From Candidatus Omnitrophota bacterium (GTDB lineage Bacteria > Omnitrophota > Gorgyraeia > Duberdicusellales > 4484-171): a DNA stretch of 64,000 bases. Positions 3,869 to 63,170 of this stretch are shown in pieces. Made by a program: the position numbers and the translations under genes. The stretch spans positions 64,897-128,896 of the forward strand of contig JAFGQU010000023.1 of assembly GCA_016935525.1 (NCBI GenBank), in the 5' to 3' direction. The notes under the pieces were generated by a model, which was given only the letters and a program-made list of their open reading frames with translations, was not told the origin of the DNA and made no database searches. The stretch's first letter is position 1; each line of letters opens with the position of its first letter.

Positions 3869-6037
3869 TTATCCTTTCGCTATGGCATCGAACTTACAGG
3901 TATCAAAACACAGCCCACAACGGGTACATTGAGCCTGATCGATTACGTGCGCCTCTTTCGGCGCGCCATTGATCGCCGAGACCGGACAGATCCGTTTACA
4001 GGCCCCGCATCCGACGCATTTGTCCGTGATCCGGTAGTCGATCAATGCTTTACATTCACCGGCAGCGCATTTTTTTTCATAAATATGCTCTTCATACTCC
4101 TTGCGGAAATTTCTTATCGTACTCAATACCGGATTCGGCGCCGATTGCCCTAACCCGCACAGTGACGCTTTTTTGATCATTGCCCCTAACCGTTCCAATT
4201 TTTCGATATCGCCTTTTTTGCCTTTACCTTCGGTAATCCTGGTCAGGATCTCAAGCATCCTTTTTGTCCCTTCCCGGCAGGGCACGCATTTACCGCAGGA
4301 TTCGTTCTGGGTGAAATCGAGAAAGAACTTAGCGATACTTACCATACAGGAAGTCTCATCGATCACGATCATCCCGCCGGAACCCATGATCGCGCCGGCT
4401 TTCTGGAGCGATTCATAATCTATTTTGGTATCCAGATCTTCTTCGGTAATACATCCCCCGGATGGGCCTCCGATCTGGACCGCTTTGAATTTCTTCCCAT
4501 CGGACACTCCGCCGCCGATATCAAAGATCAACTGTCGCAGGGTGATCCCCATCGGCACTTCGATCAACCCGGTATTTTTTACCTTACCCGCCAGAGCAAA
4601 CACTTTAGTCCCTTTACTGGTCTCGGTTCCGATCGAACTGAACCACCGGGCCCCGTCAAGTATGATCACCGGGATATTCGCCCAGGTCTCCACGTTATTG
4701 ATCAAGGTCGGTTTACCAAACAACCCTTCGATCGAAGGGTACGGCGGACGGGGCCGCGGCATTCCCCGCGAGCCTTCGATCGAATGAATCAACGCGGTCT
4801 CCTCTCCGCAGACAAACGCCCCGGCTCCCAGCCTGATCTCGATATGAAAACAGAAATCAGAACCTAAAATATTATCACCCAGGAATCCGTGTTCTTTCGC
4901 CTGAGCAAGCGCTTTTTCCAGACGTTTGATCGCAAGCGGATATTCCGCCCGGATATATACGATCCCTTTTTGCGCGCCGACGGCGTATCCGCCGATGATC
5001 ATTCCTTCGAGCACCGTATGCGGATCGCCTTCTATGGCGCTGCGGTCCATGAACGCGCCGGGATCGCCTTCATCGGCATTACAGATCACGTATTTTTCAT
5101 CACCGGGGGCCCGGCGGGTAAATTCCCATTTCGTCCCGGTCGGAAATCCCGCGCCGCCACGGCCGCGTAATCCGGATGTCTTCACTTCATCGATAACTTC
5201 CTGCGGAGTCATCTCGGTCAATACATGGGCAAGCGCCTCATATCCCCGTAAAGAGAGATACCCGTCGATACTTTCCGGGTCGCTTATCCCGCAATTACGC
5301 AGGGCGATACGCATCTGTTTCCCGAAAAAATTCACATCACCGAAAAATCGGTAAAACCGGTTAAACAGGTAATCTTCATCGACGATAAGACGCGAGACCG
5401 GCCTTCCGTTTATAAGATGGTCGTTTACGATAGACGGGATATCCTCTTCTTTCACTTTACCGTACATGGTATATCCGGGATTCACGATCATGATCGGGCC
5501 GTGATCACACATCCCCAGGCATCCCGAGAGCGTGATCGATACTTTATCATCGAGGTTTTTCTCTTTCAATTCCTGTTCAAGTTTTTCGGCCAGTTTCTTG
5601 GAATTTTTATGCATACAACCGGGCCCGTCACATAAAGTGACCGCGTACTCCCTGATTCCTTTCTGCGCTTTTGCCTCCAGGTTATTCAAAGTCCATTCCT
5701 CGATCACCTCGCCTCGTTTGAGATGGCGTTCGATGATATCCCGGGCTTTTTGCGGAGTGATCTTCCCGTACTTGACGGGCAGTTTCCCTTCTTCGACCAC
5801 CTCGACCGTCGGTTCCAGGTTACACCGTCCCACACAGCCTTTCTGACTGAGATACACATCCGCAAGCCCTTCTTCAATCGCTTTCTTAAACACCGCCATC
5901 ACTTCCTGAGAACCCGCGGCTATTTCACAGGTCGCCATCCCCACATATACGCGTTTGGTAGAAAGGTATCCCCCGCCGATAATCTTACCTATTGCTTCGG
6001 CACGTTTCTTTTTGATGATCGATAACGGTGTCACCAT
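3869..6037 (-). CDS. NuoF-like (51 kDa, NADH/FMN-binding) subunit of the hydrogenase, with N-terminal thioredoxin-like 2Fe-2S domains and a C-terminal 2x[4Fe-4S] ferredoxin
   Basis: The core GLRGRGGAGFPTGTKWEF (FMN/NADH site) and CGKCVPCREGT (N3 cluster) match NuoF. The C-terminal CVGCGACKRICP...CTRCGLCFDTC is a ferredoxin domain, giving the HndC/HydB-type architecture. Confidence 0.9.
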   Translation of the reverse strand: MVTPLSIIKKKRAEAIGKIIGGGYLSTKRVYVGMATCEIAAGSQEVMAVFKKAIEEGLADVYLSQKGCVGRCNLEPTVEVVEEGKLPVKYGKITPQKARDIIERHLKRGEVIEEWTLNNLEAKAQKGIREYAVTLCDGPGCMHKNSKKLAEKLEQELKEKNLDDKVSITLSGCLGMCDHGPIMIVNPGYTMYGKVKEEDIPSIVNDHLINGRPVSRLIVDEDYLFNRFYRFFGDVNFFGKQMRIALRNCGISDPESIDGYLSLRGYEALAHVLTEMTPQEVIDEVKTSGLRGRGGAGFPTGTKWEFTRRAPGDEKYVICNADEGDPGAFMDRSAIEGDPHTVLEGMIIGGYAVGAQKGIVYIRAEYPLAIKRLEKALAQAKEHGFLGDNILGSDFCFHIEIRLGAGAFVCGEETALIHSIEGSRGMPRPRPPYPSIEGLFGKPTLINNVETWANIPVIILDGARWFSSIGTETSKGTKVFALAGKVKNTGLIEVPMGITLRQLIFDIGGGVSDGKKFKAVQIGGPSGGCITEEDLDTKIDYESLQKAGAIMGSGGMIVIDETSCMVSIAKFFLDFTQNESCGKCVPCREGTKRMLEILTRITEGKGKKGDIEKLERLGAMIKKASLCGLGQSAPNPVLSTIRNFRKEYEEHIYEKKCAAGECKALIDYRITDKCVGCGACKRICPVSAINGAPKEAHVIDQAQCTRCGLCFDTCKFDAIAKG

Positions 6038-33398: not shown

Positions 33399-34664
33399 TT
33401 ATTCTTCGGATTTAAATTTATCTTTTATTATCGCCTCGACCCCCCGAAACAAGTTTTTTATGGTCTTCACTGCGGGGTCATCTTCGATATTTTTGATATC
33501 CGTCTCGCCTTTAAGCACCCGGTCCAGCACGTCACCGACATTCTGCATCGTAAGCTGCTGCAGACGTGCTGTTACCTGCCCCATATCGATAGAAGGATGG
33601 TCGAGCTTTGTCTTAAGCGGCGGCAAATTGAAGTAAGGATTATCATCCTTTTTTTTTAACGCGGCTAGGGCATTTTGGAGTGACTCGACTTTATCCGGCC
33701 TTAACGGATCGTTTTTGAACGCTACATCTTCAAACATCACTTCACCGGAGATAACAAGATCGTTATCGGCGGCTCTTAACTCTACAAGCAAAGAAAGGAA
33801 CGCCTGTTCCAGGTCGAGGTCATAAGCTTTAAACCCGCGCGAGTACTGTTTATCAAAAGTAAGATAATCATAACGGTCTACTTTCACCTGCGCTTCCATA
33901 TTTTTATAAAACCAATCGAGCCAACCGTCGGCTTTTAAGATATCGGGCATTTTTCTTGTTTCGGTCTCCATAGATGCCGAAACATCAAAATAGAACATCA
34001 ACAATTTCGGCAGGTTAAAATCCTTCAGCTTAACGTTGGTATCTTTCAAGGTGAATTCAAGCGGCGGGACAAAAGTATAATCGGTATAGGCAAGAGTTAT
34101 CTGTTTCAGTAATATTTCTCTGATGATAAGGGAAAAAGGGATATCTCTTTTCGGCACAGCCGAAGCGGTTAAGGGGCTTGAAATATCGACTTTACGGTTC
34201 ACGTCGACCTGATCCAATAACGGAGCGTCTTTTGAGGCCGCGATCTTGTAGCGCCAGAACGGTTCAATCGTCACCTCGTCTCTTTGCCGGACGACCTGGA
34301 CTTTAAGGCCGTCTATCTGGAGCCGGCTGAATATAGGGGTAACCGGATCGAACTTTACTCTCTCAAGTCTAAGATATGCGTGAGAAAAAGAGACATCACC
34401 GCAGGAGAAATCGCTGATAACCAGAGTAAACGGAAATGAAAGTTTTATCTGTTTTATTTCGGCCTGGACGCCATAGGTAGTGGATAAATAAGACTCTATA
34501 AAACTCTTCCCCTGACTGTTCACATAGATCATCAAACCCACATAACTGATTACGATCAACACAACGGCAACAACAACAAGCGCGAGAATAAGTTTACCTA
34601 ATTTTTCTATCATTTCATTCCCCTTTTCATTGTACAGTACAAAAAATAAATACCGAATTTTCAA
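33399..34664 (-). CDS. Membrane-anchored protein of unknown function (AsmA-like?)
   Basis: N-terminal TM LILALVVVAVVLIVISYVGLMIYV, then a 380-aa soluble region with no recognized catalytic motif. Confidence 0.35.
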   Translation of the reverse strand: MKIRYLFFVLYNEKGNEMIEKLGKLILALVVVAVVLIVISYVGLMIYVNSQGKSFIESYLSTTYGVQAEIKQIKLSFPFTLVISDFSCGDVSFSHAYLRLERVKFDPVTPIFSRLQIDGLKVQVVRQRDEVTIEPFWRYKIAASKDAPLLDQVDVNRKVDISSPLTASAVPKRDIPFSLIIREILLKQITLAYTDYTFVPPLEFTLKDTNVKLKDFNLPKLLMFYFDVSASMETETRKMPDILKADGWLDWFYKNMEAQVKVDRYDYLTFDKQYSRGFKAYDLDLEQAFLSLLVELRAADNDLVISGEVMFEDVAFKNDPLRPDKVESLQNALAALKKKDDNPYFNLPPLKTKLDHPSIDMGQVTARLQQLTMQNVGDVLDRVLKGETDIKNIEDDPAVKTIKNLFRGVEAIIKDKFKSEE

Positions 34665-34819
34665 CGCGTTTCGCGTGTCGCGTTACGCGTTACGATAAAG
34701 ACAGCGCGCCCGGCATTCTTCGTCATGCGTAACGCGTTCTGCGTAACGCGTGAAGAAAAATAAAAACCAAGTTTTCAACGCGTGTCGCGTTACTCGTTAC
34801 GCGTTACGATAAAAACAAC
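34664..34819. repeat. Two tandem copies of a CGTTACGCG-rich element of about 55-100 bp downstream of tRNA-Arg. The distal copy carries a fragment of the tRNA-Arg 3' end.
   Basis: 34664-34716 is ...cgcgttacgcgttacgataaagacaGCGCGCCCGGCA, against 34770-34830 ...cgcgttactcgttacgcgttacgataaaaacaaCGCGCCCGGCAGGG (the true tRNA end). The shared block gaagaaaaataaaaaccaagttttcaacgcg precedes both. Confidence 0.7.
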
Positions 34820-34893
34820 GCGCCCGGCAGGGATCGAACCTGCCACATTCTGCTTAGAAGGCAGATGCTCTATCCAAATGAGCTACGGGCGCA
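34820..34893 (-). tRNA. tRNA-Arg (TCT)
   Basis: Reverse complement GCGCCCG-TA-GCTC-ATTTGGATA-GAGC-A-TCTGC-CTTCTAA-GCAGA-ATGTG-GCAGG-TTCGATC-CCTGC-CGGGCGC-G. Anticodon TCT. CCA is not encoded. Confidence 0.85.
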
Positions 34894-35074
34894 TAATAGC
34901 TAATGGCGTACAGCCAATGGCTAATGTTAGCAAAGAACCTCGATGGCATATTACCATGAGTCCATTAAAATCCAAATGCTCAATGAGGCTTACGCTTTTT
35001 AGAGCCAGCAGCGAATAAAAAGCGTGTAGTCGAATTAGTCCCGCGTATCCCCGCGGGAAGCTACGGGCGCAAAA

Positions 35075-35168
35075 AGCGTCACGCGTTCTGCGTCATGCGT
35101 AACGCGTGAAGAAAAATAAAAACCAAGTTTTCAACGCGGTACGCGTTACTCGTTACGCGTTACGAAAT
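35075..35168. repeat. Third copy of the CGTTACGCG-rich element, immediately downstream of tRNA-Pro
   Basis: cgtcacgcgttctgcgtcatgcgtaacgcgtgaagaaaaataaaaaccaagttttcaacgcggtacgcgttactcgttacgcgttacga is near-identical to 34720-34808. Confidence 0.7.
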
Positions 35169-35246
35169 TGGTCGGGGCGACAGGATTTGAACCTGTGACA
35201 TCTTGGTCCCAAACCAAGCGCTCTAGCCAGGCTGAGCCACGCCCCG
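35169..35246 (-). tRNA. tRNA-Pro (TGG)
   Basis: Reverse complement CGGGGCG-TG-GCTC-AGCCTGGCTA-GAGC-G-CTTGG-TTTGGGA-CCAAG-ATGTC-ACAGG-TTCAAAT-CCTGT-CGCCCCG-A-CCA. Anticodon TGG. CCA is encoded. Confidence 0.85.
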
Positions 35247-35499
35247 AGGCGATAGCGCGTTCGCGCTATCTCGTAACGCGTGAGAAAATAGATTTTCAAT
35301 ACATTCCGTGATAATCCGCGTAGATATCCCCGCCTGCCTGTCAGCCCCGCACAGCGTGGGGCAGGCTGCCTCCCGACCAACGGGAGGGCGGGCAGGTCAC
35401 GCCCCGAAGAATAGCGTATAGCGGTTAGGGTATAGCGTTTAGTAAATAATTCTAATCTCCTCTAATCACTCGCCTCGAAGACTTTCAAAGAAGAGACGC

Positions 35500-35580
35500 C
35501 CTCGCATCGCTGTCACCCCTGAAGATTCTCACAAAAGAAATTTCTTCACGTGTGACTATGTGACCTTGTGTCGTGTGACC
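35500..35580. repeat. GTCACA-family element with right (TGTGAC) arm only
   Basis: cacgTGTGACtaTGTGACctTGTGTCgTGTGACc. Confidence 0.6.
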
Positions 35581-36214: not shown

Positions 36215-36330
36215 CATGTCACACGTTGCACGTCACACGACACACGTATCTTCTTTGCGTATGACTCTGTGACCATGTGACTTTGTGACTCGCCGAAGGC
36301 AGATGTGTGACTTTGTGACCATGTGACTTT
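36215..36330. repeat. GTCACA-family composite element (left GTCACA array, right array of 6 TGTGAC units)
   Basis: atGTCACAcgttgcacGTCACAcgacacacg ... ctcTGTGACcaTGTGACttTGTGACtcgccgaaggcagatgTGTGACttTGTGACcaTGTGAC. Confidence 0.7.
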
Positions 36331-37078: not shown

Positions 37079-37180
37079 GTCACACGCTTGTCTACCGACA
37101 AGCTAGTCACAAGGTTACATCGTCACATGTCAAAATATCTCTTACTACGTGTGACGTGTGTCGTGTGACTATGTGACGTT
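37079..37180. repeat. GTCACA-family composite element
   Basis: aGTCACAcg...taGTCACAag...cGTCACAtg ... cgTGTGACgTGTGTCgTGTGACtaTGTGACg. Confidence 0.7.
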
Positions 37181-48929: not shown

Positions 48930-50048
48930 TCAGAGTTCTTTGCGTAATTTCCCCAATTCGGTCAAAAGAGCTTTCTCTTTTGCCGAAAGGTTTTTAGGGA
49001 TTACTATTTCGACTTCAACGAATTCATCACCCTGACGTTTAGTCCGGTAATCGAGCACGCCTTTTCCTTTAAGACGGAACACGCTGCCGTTCTGAGTCCC
49101 GGCCGGGATCTTCATCTGAACTTTACCGGCAAGCGTCGGCACTTCTATCTCACCGCCCAAGGCGGCTTTCACCATGGTCACGCTCACTTTGCATTTCAAA
49201 TTACTCCCCTGCCGCTGAAAGACAGGATGTCTGGAAACGACAATATGCAAAAAAAGGTCGCCGTATCCGGCGACTCCGGCATTCCCTTCGTTACGCAGCC
49301 GGACAATCGATCCGTTATCCACGCCCGCGGGGATCTTTACGCTTACTTTCTTATTCGCTTTCGTTTTTCCCTGCCCGTGACACTGGGTACACGGTTTTTC
49401 GATCATCTGGCCGGTCCCCTGACAACGGACACACGGCTGGCTTAACGTGAAAAAACCCATTCCGCTGGTCACCTGGCCAGAGCCGCGGCATCCTGAACAC
49501 ACTATTTTTTTTGAACCGGGTTCGGCACCCTGCCCCTGACAACGGGTACAATGTTCAAACCGGGGGAACGTGATCGTCCGTTCGACGCCGCCGGCGGCAT
49601 CCGGAAGCGTGATCTCTATTTCATAATGGATGTCTTTTCCTTGTCCGCGGGAAGTTCTACCTCCTCCACGGCCGCCGAAGATATCAAAACCAAGATCACT
49701 AAAAAAATCACCGAATATATTCTCGGCACCGCCGCCACCGCCGAACCCCATATCCCGGAATATCGTACTGAAATCGGCGCCACGGAAAATATCTTCGGTA
49801 GAATACCGGGAATCTATCCCGGCATGGCCGTACTGATCATATAATTTACGTTTCTTTTCATCGCTCAATACGGCATAGGCTTCGGAAACCTCTTTAAACT
49901 TTTCCTCAGCCGCTTTCTTCTTCTCTTCCGGCACCCGGTCGGGATGCGTCTGCATGACAAGCTTACGGTAAGCTTTCTTTACCTCGTCCGGCGAGGCGCC
50001 TTTAGCTACTCCCAAAATTTCGTAATAATCACGTTGGGTACTCATCAT
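48930..50048 (-). CDS. dnaJ: Chaperone DnaJ
   Basis: J-domain with HPD, G/F region, four CxxCxGxG repeats. Confidence 0.95.
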   Translation of the reverse strand: MMSTQRDYYEILGVAKGASPDEVKKAYRKLVMQTHPDRVPEEKKKAAEEKFKEVSEAYAVLSDEKKRKLYDQYGHAGIDSRYSTEDIFRGADFSTIFRDMGFGGGGGAENIFGDFFSDLGFDIFGGRGGGRTSRGQGKDIHYEIEITLPDAAGGVERTITFPRFEHCTRCQGQGAEPGSKKIVCSGCRGSGQVTSGMGFFTLSQPCVRCQGTGQMIEKPCTQCHGQGKTKANKKVSVKIPAGVDNGSIVRLRNEGNAGVAGYGDLFLHIVVSRHPVFQRQGSNLKCKVSVTMVKAALGGEIEVPTLAGKVQMKIPAGTQNGSVFRLKGKGVLDYRTKRQGDEFVEVEIVIPKNLSAKEKALLTELGKLRKEL

Positions 50049-50054
50049 AGCTCA

Positions 50055-50145
50055 CGCACGTCACAAAGTCACAAGGTCACATAGTCACAGGTTGAAGAGA
50101 GATTTTTCTCCCCACGTGTGACGTGTGACATGTGTCGTGTGACCT
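50055..50145. repeat. GTCACA-family composite element between dnaK and dnaJ (four GTCACANN units facing four TGTGAC units)
   Basis: GTCACAaaGTCACAagGTCACAtaGTCACAgg-N21-cacgTGTGACgTGTGACaTGTGTCgTGTGACc. The left arm is identical to 52222-52253. Confidence 0.75.
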
Positions 50146-50148
50146 TTT

Positions 50149-52053
<1,905 letters not shown>

Positions 52054-52221
52054 ACCTCCTCAATGAGCGCACAATTTTTCAAGCGTACTCACGCGATGAA
52101 AAATTGCATGCGCGAATTGACTCCGACGAGCTCCGCGAGATTTTACCTGTAAAATCGAGCGGTATACTGGGCGAGTCGGAGCAAATACCCTATCAATAAA
52201 CTACTTCCTTCAAATCTTCGG

Positions 52222-52330
52222 GTCACAAAGTCACAAGGTCACATAGTCACAGGTATAGAAAATTTTATTCGTGTGACGTGCTTGCCCCGTTGTCGCCAGA
52301 CTCACGGGTGTGACCTGTGTCGTGTGACTC
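52222..52330. repeat. GTCACA-family composite element at the grpE 3' end. Its right arm is interrupted by 25 nt and overlaps the last roughly 20 grpE codons.
   Basis: GTCACAaaGTCACAagGTCACAtaGTCACAgg...cgTGTGACgtg[cttgccccgttgtcgccagactcac]gggTGTGACcTGTGTCgTGTGACtc. Confidence 0.75.
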
Positions 52331-52903
52331 ATTTTTCTTCACACTCACAATCACTTTCGCGGTCCTTAGCACTTTCTCGTTTAAAAAATACCCTTTTTGT
52401 ACTTCTTCAAGGACCATATGCTCTTCACCCTCGTCGATTTCTTTCTGCCCGACGATCTCATGGCAATGAGGGTCGAATTTTTTACCTTTAGTCACGATGA
52501 GTTCAAGCCCGCATTTCTGCAGGATCCCGAAAAACCGGTTGAACGATATCTCGATACCTTTCAGCATCTGTTCGCCGGCATTATGTTCTTTACCGATACG
52601 CAACGCGTGTTCCAAATCATCCAGCACGACGATAAGGTCCAGGATCAACTGATAATTGGCAAACCGGAACATCTCTCCTTTTTCCCGGTCCCACCGTTTA
52701 CGGCTATTCTCAAAATCGGCATGTAACCGCAGATATTTATTCCACAATTCGTTATATTCCGACGCTTTTTTCTGCAATTCGTCTTCAAAGAACTTCCCGG
52801 CCTCTTTACCGCCGCACTCGTTTTGGCAGGCCTCATCGTTATGAGCGCAAGATGATTCCTGCTGTTTTTCCTGGTCAGGGTTATGCTCTTTAGGTAGTTT
52901 CAT
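52265..52903 (-). CDS. grpE: Nucleotide exchange factor GrpE, with a C-terminal tail (HDTGHTRESGDNGASTSHE) that appears to be encoded by the GTCACA repeat
   Basis: GrpE coiled-coil plus beta-domain core (…LRTAKVIVSVKK). The last 60 nt of the ORF coincide with the TGTGAC arm. Confidence 0.85.
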   Translation of the reverse strand: MKLPKEHNPDQEKQQESSCAHNDEACQNECGGKEAGKFFEDELQKKASEYNELWNKYLRLHADFENSRKRWDREKGEMFRFANYQLILDLIVVLDDLEHALRIGKEHNAGEQMLKGIEISFNRFFGILQKCGLELIVTKGKKFDPHCHEIVGQKEIDEGEEHMVLEEVQKGYFLNEKVLRTAKVIVSVKKNESHDTGHTRESGDNGASTSHE

Positions 52904-53663
52904 CCCACACTCCTTCTAAAATCGATTCGAGATTATGTTTTACCGAATGAAGAGCCGATACCGCCCGCACATAATCCATACGCATCGGCCCCAAAAGAGC
53001 AAGCGAAGCGGTAAGATCGCTGTGTTCGATACCGGAGATCACCATTGAACATCCCGAAATATCGCTGACACCGATCTGGTCCCCGATAAGAATACACATA
53101 TCTTCTTTGGTATAACGGAACAACAGATCCTGCAAATCGTCGATCTTCACCTCTAACGCGTAAAACAACGATTTAAGACGATGAATATCTTCGAATTCCG
53201 GCTGGTTGAAGATGAACCTCATTCCCCGAAAGAAGAACTTATCTTCGAATCCCGATATCGCTACCAACGAGGCATATCCGCTGATCGTCGCCAACACATC
53301 GAGGGTCCGGTCAAATATATATTCGATATCCCGGGCATGACGCAGATCTATCTCCATATCGGCGATAATACGCTCTTGAAGCAACCCGACTATCTCTTCA
53401 TCCAGCATATTCTCTTCTTTCAGGCGGCCGACATAATATTGAAACCCTTCCTGAGTAGGGACCCTTCCCGACGAAGTATGGATATGAGATAGATACCCTT
53501 TCTTTTCCAGAGATTCCATCACATTACGGACCGTTGCCGACGAACAGGAAAGATTGGCACGATCACAAAGATATCCCGAACTGATCGGTTTCGATTCTTT
53601 GATATAATGCTGAACGACCAGGTTTAATACCTCAAATTCCCTTTTTTTACTATCTTCTTTCAT
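52890..53663 (-). CDS. hrcA: Heat-inducible transcription repressor HrcA
   Basis: Winged-helix N-terminus. Length and the conserved GPMRMDY-like C-terminal region fit HrcA. Confidence 0.85.
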   Translation of the reverse strand: MKEDSKKREFEVLNLVVQHYIKESKPISSGYLCDRANLSCSSATVRNVMESLEKKGYLSHIHTSSGRVPTQEGFQYYVGRLKEENMLDEEIVGLLQERIIADMEIDLRHARDIEYIFDRTLDVLATISGYASLVAISGFEDKFFFRGMRFIFNQPEFEDIHRLKSLFYALEVKIDDLQDLLFRYTKEDMCILIGDQIGVSDISGCSMVISGIEHSDLTASLALLGPMRMDYVRAVSALHSVKHNLESILEGVWDETT

Positions 53664-53691: not shown

Positions 53692-53718
53692 TTAGCACTC
53701 TATCAATCAGAGTGCCAG
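53692..53718 (-). promoter_or_regulatory. CIRCE operator (HrcA binding site) for the hrcA-grpE-dnaK-dnaJ operon
   Basis: The minus strand reads CTGGCACTC-tgattgata-GAGTGCTAA, against the consensus TTAGCACTC-N9-GAGTGCTAA. Confidence 0.8.
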
Positions 53719-57800: not shown

Positions 57801-57902
57801 TTTCCGTCGTTAGTCGATCGTCGTTGGTCGTTCGTATAAGGATATCGGGACAGGGTTACGGGTACCGAGAATACCCGAAACCCTGCACCCTGTACCCGAA
57901 CA

Positions 57903-58447: not shown

Positions 58448-58474
58448 TTAGCACTCATAACAATAGACTGCCAA
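58448..58474 (-). promoter_or_regulatory. Degenerate CIRCE-like inverted repeat upstream of hsp20
   Basis: TTAGCACTC-ataacaata-GACTGCCAA. The left half is perfect; the right half matches 6 of 9. Confidence 0.4.
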
Positions 58475-63040: not shown

Positions 63041-63084
63041 GCGCGGGATGAGAGTCACACAGTCACATGGTCACATGTCACACG
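63041..63084. repeat. GTCACA-family half element (left arm only)
   Basis: GTCACAcaGTCACAtgGTCACAtGTCACAcg. Confidence 0.6.
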
Positions 63085-63170
63085 TAAAGAAAAAACTGTG
63101 GTTAAGCTCTCTGAAAATAGATCTTTTGCGTTATACTACGGACCACAGACTATGGACTACAGGCCATCGA

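Follow-up and report, generated by a model that had tools for sequence, protein, structure and literature searches.

The stretch of DNA analysed here, referred to as the window, comprises 64,000 nucleotides from a Candidatus Omnitrophota bacterium. Its minus strand carries a standard heat-shock operon in the order hrcA-grpE-dnaK-dnaJ, with an operator-like site ahead of the first gene:

53692-53718, plus strand: CIRCE-like operator upstream of hrcA (consensus search; two mismatches, 0 expected by chance)
52890-53663, minus strand: hrcA, heat-shock operon member
52265-52903, minus strand: grpE coding sequence, 212 codons plus stop (list of open reading frames); residues 1-190 are conserved GrpE protein
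50149-52053, minus strand: dnaK, the operon's downstream gene (open reading frame; Pfam HSP70, E=3.7e-224)
48930-50048, minus strand: dnaJ, heat-shock operon member

A promoter-like site is also present upstream of hrcA on the minus strand (53749-53721). The CIRCE-like site marks the four genes as one operon, and the repeat element located between grpE and dnaK is therefore probably part of the heat-shock operon transcript. A second CIRCE-like inverted repeat, likewise with two mismatches and 0 expected by chance, was found at 58448-58474. Both repeats have the form TTAGCACTC-N9-GAGTGC....

The GrpE protein matched Pfam family PF01025 (E=1.6e-39) over residues 32-187, corresponding to profile positions 9-164 of 165, and the match spans both the coiled coil and the beta-domain. 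The protein is 100% identical to a 212-residue GrpE annotated in an NCBI Candidatus Omnitrophica MAG. Its open reading frame ends in ...KVIVSVKKNESHDTGHTRESGDNGASTSHE and a stop codon, and residues 193-212 lie outside the family model. Matches to the solved GrpE chains 4ani, 3a6m and 1dkg stop at query residues 186-188, where those chains reach their C-termini. In an AlphaFold model built with 29 homologues, the final strand covers residues 182-189 and pLDDT falls from approximately 92 to approximately 53 past residue 190. Pfam, the solved structures and AlphaFold agree that the GrpE fold finishes at K189/K190, leaving the tail outside it. The initial annotation had placed the end of the conserved protein near VKK, and these sources put it at residues 187-190.

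Beyond the fold, the 3' end of grpE runs into a hairpin repeat element with the following parts:

52222-52329, minus strand: whole hairpin repeat element, 108 nt, consisting of 5' arm, loop and 3' arm in mRNA sense (sequence, tandem repeats, fold and alignment)
52268-52327, minus strand: codons S193-E212, the element-encoded C-terminal tail SHDTGHTRESGDNGASTSHE (translation)
52308-52328, minus strand: 5' arm units 1-3, GTCACAC GACACAG GTCACAC, encoding SHDTGHT (sequence, alignment)
52278-52307, minus strand: window-specific 30-nt in-frame insertion in the 5' arm, encoding approximately T199-T209 (alignment)
52271-52277, minus strand: 5' arm unit 4, GTCACAC, encoding part of T209-S210-H211 (sequence, alignment)
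52254-52270, minus strand: loop of 17 nt, GAATAAAATTTTCTATA in mRNA sense, containing codon E212 and the stop TAA (sequence)
52222-52253, minus strand: non-coding 3' arm, four TGTGAC units with an 8-nt period, CCTGTGAC TATGTGAC CTTGTGAC TTTGTGAC (sequence, repeat search)

In mRNA sense, the element consists of four G(T/A)CACAC heptamers followed by a loop of some 17 nt and four TGTGAC units. Read on the plus strand, four GTCACA units start at 52222, 52230, 52238 and 52246. Past the loop follow GTGTGAC (52271-52277), 30 nt of non-repeat sequence (52278-52307), GTGTGAC (52308-52314), CTGTGTC (52315-52321) and GTGTGAC (52322-52328). The element is predicted to fold as RNA at -40 kcal/mol (z=-4.0), and the 30-nt insertion forms a branch or side hairpin in the predicted minimum-energy fold.

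The grpE gene has no stop codon ahead of this element. With slashes at the limits of repeat units, its mRNA ends AAG AAA AAT GA/G TCA CAC GAC ACA GGT CAC AC/C CGT GAG TCT GGC GAC AAC GGG GCA AGC AC/G TCA CAC GAA TAA, followed by aattttctata and the 3' arm. The frame crosses the whole 5' arm and halts where the loop begins, at a TAA (52265-52267). The initial annotation had equated the nucleotides of the tail with an interrupted repeat arm, and the tail codons do coincide with the 5' arm of the element. Its further statement that the last 20 or so codons are encoded by the repeat holds in so far as S193-E212 lie inside the element; about half of these 20 codons (T199-T209, approximately ten) derive, however, from the 30-nt non-repeat insertion, and the rest from repeat units. 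A search of the window and all fetched loci with the insertion revealed no other copy and no recognizable repeat. The tail is predicted to be disordered, the AlphaFold model having no secondary structure there at a pLDDT of about 53.

A paralogous copy of the element is located at the next junction of the operon:

50060-50143, minus strand: fully intergenic copy between dnaK and dnaJ, starting 5 nt after the dnaK stop

Its predicted RNA fold has an energy of -38.2 kcal/mol (z=-4.1). The 3' arms of the two copies are identical and the 5' arms nearly so. With the insert removed, the grpE-dnaK element is 92% identical to this non-coding copy.

The databases searched held only two close relatives (L001/L002 and L003), giving a clade of three genomes and two lineages. 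L001 is a JGI record, L002 an ENA record and L003 a GTDB representative MAG. The L003 contig (CAZABB010000028.1) is labelled 'uncultured Planctomycetia bacterium' and its nearest named GrpE matches are Omnitrophica/Omnitrophota, which is probably a difference in taxonomic labelling inside the PVC group. The GrpE of L001/L002 is 79% identical to that of the window and ends KK-TSHDTGHTTHE; its arm is uninterrupted and the loop TAA is used in the same way. The GrpE of L003 is 78% identical to that of the window and ends KK-ESHDT; its stop is a TGA within the arm, formed by a T spacer together with a GAC unit. In all three genomes the arm starts at the identical codon position, just past the conserved V-K-K codons, and the tail after KK is 22 (window), 11 (L001) or 5 (L003) residues long. 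The element of the window can be aligned with four other junction copies, and the 30-nt insertion is present neither in L001 or L003 nor in either dnaK-dnaJ copy. The GA(A/G)TAA motif also occurs in the non-coding dnaK-dnaJ copy of L003, which indicates that the grpE stop codon belongs to the element. The spacer that separates the element from the dnaK ribosome-binding site is 168 nt long in the window (52054-52221), compared with only 24-27 nt in L001 and L003. The spacer contains internal inverted repeats, its fold is not significant (z=-1.4), and no second copy of it was found in the window or any of the loci.

L001 and L003 share the SHDT start of the tail, encoded by arm DNA at the same codon. 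The same tail was not encountered in an orthologue lacking the GTCACA repeat, both relatives carrying a GTCACAC arm. In more distant Omnitrophota, whose GrpE identity does not exceed 61%, the tails are unrelated and range from 3 to approximately 60 residues. A GTCACAC arm was sought after grpE in the outgroups L028, L029 and L031 and was absent; these genes have unrelated tails and ordinary stops. In L028, four GTGAC units with an 8-nt period are found just upstream of the dnaK ribosome-binding site (2146-2175), with no partner arm after grpE, and this array may be a half or decayed element.

Repeats carry a general risk of misassembly in MAGs, and a miscalled 3' end or a native tail resembling the repeat by chance could also be imagined. 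Beyond that general risk nothing speaks for such an artefact or coincidence, which is considered extremely improbable. The identical open reading frame architecture is found in four separate assembly records (the window MAG, JGI L001, ENA L002 and GTDB L003), and the arm closely matches the non-coding copy 2 kb away. By chance, a pattern of as few as two GTCACA units would be expected 0.05 times in the window.

The age of the overlap can be judged from the neighbouring coding sequences. Four-fold sites of hrcA, grpE, dnaK and dnaJ are 45-58% identical between the window and L001/L003, which is near saturation. Since the element nevertheless occupies the same position, the overlap must be old; as far as these alignments date it, the overlap of grpE and the element is ancient and predates the split from the two related genomes. 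The element itself is 91-93% identical between the window and L001/L003, far above the four-fold sites, and we infer that concerted evolution or selection has held it almost unchanged. Four of the five junction copies, namely both of those in the window and both in L003, have 4+4 units, and the L001 copy has 4+3. With unit number near constant, nothing appears to be expanding at grpE, and copy-number slippage of the STRR type was not observed.

These data bear on the proposal that the element recently transposed into, or multiplied its units at, the 3' end of grpE in the window genome. The family is multi-copy, its variants move between sites, its arms are repeatedly interrupted by small insertions, and the window copy has undergone a lineage-specific 30-nt change, all of which would fit recent mobility. 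Such an event is nonetheless very unlikely, given that relatives with near-saturated synonymous sites carry the element at the same codon, that none of the junction copies has gained units and that the interruption is a unique, non-repeat sequence. Target-site duplications, as expected of a MITE, were not visible at the flanks of either the grpE-dnaK or the dnaK-dnaJ copy. With two lineages only, independent insertion at a hot spot is formally possible. The initial annotation had proposed that the repeat inserted into, or expanded at, the end of grpE and replaced or extended its native terminus. The extension stands, the tail being encoded by the element, and the expansion of units does not. 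The same annotation had seen here direct evidence for mobile or expanding elements, a claim that is not supported in view of the old overlap, the near-constant units and the unique interruption. The GrpE tail is repeat-derived and tolerated, and the old overlap at grpE does not demonstrate a recent move of the repeat. The interpretation given in the initial annotation is thus supported in part, and the locus is read as an ancient, stable overlap rather than a product of recent mobility or expansion.

Indirect evidence on the dynamics of the family comes from comparison across sites. Identity between the grpE-dnaK copy of L001 and the dnaK-dnaJ copy of L003 reaches 97%, and these two have their loop and 20-nt palindromic insert (CCTGCCTGCCGGCAGGTAGG) in common; with its positional orthologue in L003, the L001 copy is only 90% identical. 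This pattern is best explained by exchange of variants between copies, through gene conversion or replacement; it suggests concerted evolution and points indirectly to a dynamic repeat family. The palindrome is also found beside an element in L010, and a small GC-rich palindrome, CTGCCTGCCGGCAGG, was observed in or beside GTCACA elements at three non-orthologous sites (L001 1004-1023, L003 4070-4089 and L010 1153-1171) and is absent from the window.

The composition of the two arms accounts for the length of the tail. The strand of the 5' arm is rich in C and A, with T solely in the context GTC, and TAA, TAG and TGA are impossible in all frames. Each unit of the 3' arm has a TGA, and three units suffice to close every frame. 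This genome uses TGA as an ordinary stop, and 12 of 32 long open reading frames in the window end with it. At some 20 other copies, nearly all of them between co-directional genes, the upstream open reading frame stops 0-19 nt ahead of the first unit. Because the 5' arm is free of stops in every frame, read-through from grpE extends to the loop when the upstream stop is missing. A second read-through was found in L004, in an epimerase/GDP-fucose-synthase-like open reading frame that ends ...RELKTRHTSHDTGHT before its stop, 19 residues beyond the end of the family model:

L004 518-560, minus strand: repeat-encoded tail TRHTSHDTGHT with TGA at the start of the loop (related metagenome)

This is a second, independent repeat-encoded tail; the peptide SHDTGHT, specified by units 1-3 in the window, is also read off that arm in L001 and L004. 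The suggestion in the initial annotation that such elements can be tolerated in coding sequence is borne out by both cases. A third candidate, in L010, was rejected, as the open reading frame had no Pfam match and is antisense to purE (AIR carboxylase).

It might be argued that the GrpE tail is a selected extension, for example a metal-binding or regulatory C-terminus rich in His and Asp that was recruited from the repeat. In favour of this, all three genomes read the tail in frame and share its initial SHDT, the 30-nt insertion leaves the frame intact, the tail includes His, Asp, Ser and Thr, and C-terminal tails are general among Omnitrophota GrpE proteins. However, the constraint on the arm nucleotides, which are equally conserved in non-coding copies, explains the shared SHDT and the in-frame insertion just as well, and frame-keeping is weak evidence since any other frame would also stop within the 3' arm. 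Tail length varies over 5, 11 and 22 residues, and L001 and L003 differ in it although their GrpE proteins are 96% identical, which argues that the tail has no length or sequence constraint of its own. It is also predicted to be disordered at low model confidence, and an unrelated enzyme in L004 ends in the same peptide. Selection for the tail is thus unlikely. From these sequence comparisons, we infer that the tail is probably a tolerated by-product and not a selected domain.

Further copies with irregular arms were found elsewhere in the window:

36218-36330: copy with irregular arms
37079-37180: copy with irregular arms
35551-35580: half copy

Further copies also show arms broken by small hairpin-forming inserts. 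In one of the two irregular copies the TGTGAC arm is duplicated and a small GC hairpin interrupts it; in the other, a 21-nt palindrome (tagcttgtcggtagacaagcg) separates units. A plus-strand array of four GTCACA units is located at 63054-63083; its nearest partner is not a TGTGAC arm but two copies of ACTACGGACCACAG (63135-63162). Tandem Repeats Finder reported arrays of about four copies with a period of 7-8 at 36218, 37147, 50060, 50114, 52222 and 63053. A long interrupted hairpin was predicted for the copies tested, with z between -3.5 and -4.9 in six of seven. A search with the 21-nt arm pattern returned 24 metagenome loci, 17 of hairpin type (L025 among them being the same contig as L001) and 7 with microsatellite-like runs. 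No Rfam family was detected at the elements, either across the whole window at gathering thresholds or within 49900-52500 at E<=1.

The window also contains other families of inverted heptamer arrays, which follow the 4+4 plan with different units (34660-35300, 35411-35442 and 57805-57835). ACGCGT(T) arrays flank tRNA-Arg (34818-34893) and tRNA-Pro (35169-35246), and ATAGCGT and CGTCGTT arrays are found elsewhere. Directly after the dnaK stop, L029 has four AGTAGAG units (5543-5575) and L031 (5587-5625 and 5676-5700) has five (A/T)TAGCG(A/G) units, as well as three TGTGAC-like units. The heptamer-array architecture seems to be widespread in the phylum, with a fast-changing unit sequence.

Two specific functions were considered for the element and rejected. 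It is not an intrinsic terminator of the sense strand, as no U-run or terminator-like site was found at either element, the sole match being on the plus strand at 50115-50141. A heat-shock-specific operator or RNA thermometer was rejected since the element also lies between unrelated genes. The element fills spacers between co-directional genes, and a sister family flanks tRNA genes. By analogy, it is likely to be an intercistronic, REP-like RNA hairpin that affects transcript stability or processing. Within the stem, GACACA units oppose TGTGAC without compensation, giving A-A mismatches, and therefore pairing alone may not be what is conserved.

Several known classes of bacterial repeats resemble this family in part. 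A role in transcript stability or processing has been proposed for REP elements, and some copies of REP/BIME, including the GTAG- and CGTC-tagged REPs, lie inside genes (Di Nocera et al., 2013; PMC3733652). Like REPs, the present elements are imperfect palindromes that closely follow coding regions, for the most part where neighbouring genes share one direction, and are plausibly transcribed as RNA hairpins. They differ in size (85-110 nt compared with palindromes of 20-40 bp) and in having arms of 4+4 heptamers instead of a single palindrome. An unpaired GTAG or CGTC tag at one end, as in REPs, is not clearly evident: many copies start CGTCACAC, and CGTC occurs solely at unit junctions, where it recurs each time and is predicted to be paired. 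Intergenic heptanucleotide repeats have been described in Calothrix/Nostoc and, as GGGAATC with some inverted pairs, in Xanthomonas (Rehm et al., 2015; PMC4692102). The present family shares with these STRR-like repeats the tandem heptamer unit, the intergenic location, some inverted arrays, the capacity to form stem-loops and the variation between related species. In contrast, its arrays keep to a fixed, short length of four imperfect units in each arm, always have an inverted partner and are not G-rich, and several unit families (GTCACAC, ACGCGTT and others) occur in one genome.

Rickettsia palindromic elements (RPE), which Ogata et al. are said to have reported in 2000, are reportedly inserted internally and in frame in protein-coding genes. 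The likeness lies in a selfish-looking palindromic repeat that is translated within an essential, conserved protein without destroying it. The grpE element differs in that it overlaps the 3' terminus only and adds a terminal tail.

Further precedents are repeats of the ERIC/RU, BOX/RUP/SPRITE and BRE types, whose open frames extend the 3' ends of genes (Delihas, 2011; PMC3184786, section 15). As in those fusions, a dispersed intergenic hairpin repeat continues the frame of a genuine gene at its 3' end and lengthens it. Here, however, the repeat belongs to a heptamer-unit family of an uncultured phylum, the fusion is old and conserved in position, the stop position is variable, and the stop codon is supplied by the loop of the element. 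Repeat-encoded 3' extensions are thus already known, and the grpE tail is a new example in an apparently undescribed repeat family; no description of the GTCACAC family was found in literature searches on cyanobacterial STRR sequences, heptameric repeats and Omnitrophota repeats.

Two routes could have led to the overlap. In the first, a stop codon abutting the arm would have been lost, for example by a change of TAG/TCACAC to GAG; stops directly abutting the arm exist in L007. In the second, the element would have inserted just after the conserved V-K-K codons, which out of frame resemble the stop-plus-A-run that usually flanks the element (T TAA AAA G in L001). Stop loss and insertion fit the data alike. 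In either case, grpE lacks the stop that most copies have 0-19 nt ahead of unit 1. Translation would then cross the stop-free 5' arm and halt at the loop TAA of the element itself, adding a 20-residue tail that would sit beyond the last GrpE beta-strand. The 30-nt in-frame insertion, specific to the window, has split the arm and provides about half of the tail. Taken as a whole, the reading of a dispersed hairpin repeat in old overlap with grpE, read through to give an unconstrained and tolerated tail, is regarded as likely.

A broader possibility is that heptamer-array hairpins form a phylum-wide, actively homogenized punctuation system of Omnitrophota operons. Behind it stand the variety of heptamers by genus (GTCACAC, ACGCGTT, AGTAGAG and WTAGCGR), their placement after stops and around tRNA genes, the strand-asymmetric stops and the constancy of the elements. 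The idea is rather doubtful at present. If true, it would imply a dedicated mechanism that maintains the arrays, either copy-correction or a sequence-specific RNA- or DNA-binding factor, and the grpE tail would be its visible side effect.

The grpE locus offers a dated case in which a dispersed hairpin repeat has long overlapped the end of an essential chaperone gene while the encoded tail drifted between 5, 11 and 22 residues. It also provides a sequence rule for long tails, in that stops are impossible in one arm and close every frame in the other. When Omnitrophota proteins are annotated, C-terminal tails such as SHDTGHT and the like should be recognized as derived from the repeat and not as features of the protein family. 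The repeat family, conserved far above synonymous sites, is a more interesting lead than the tail itself.
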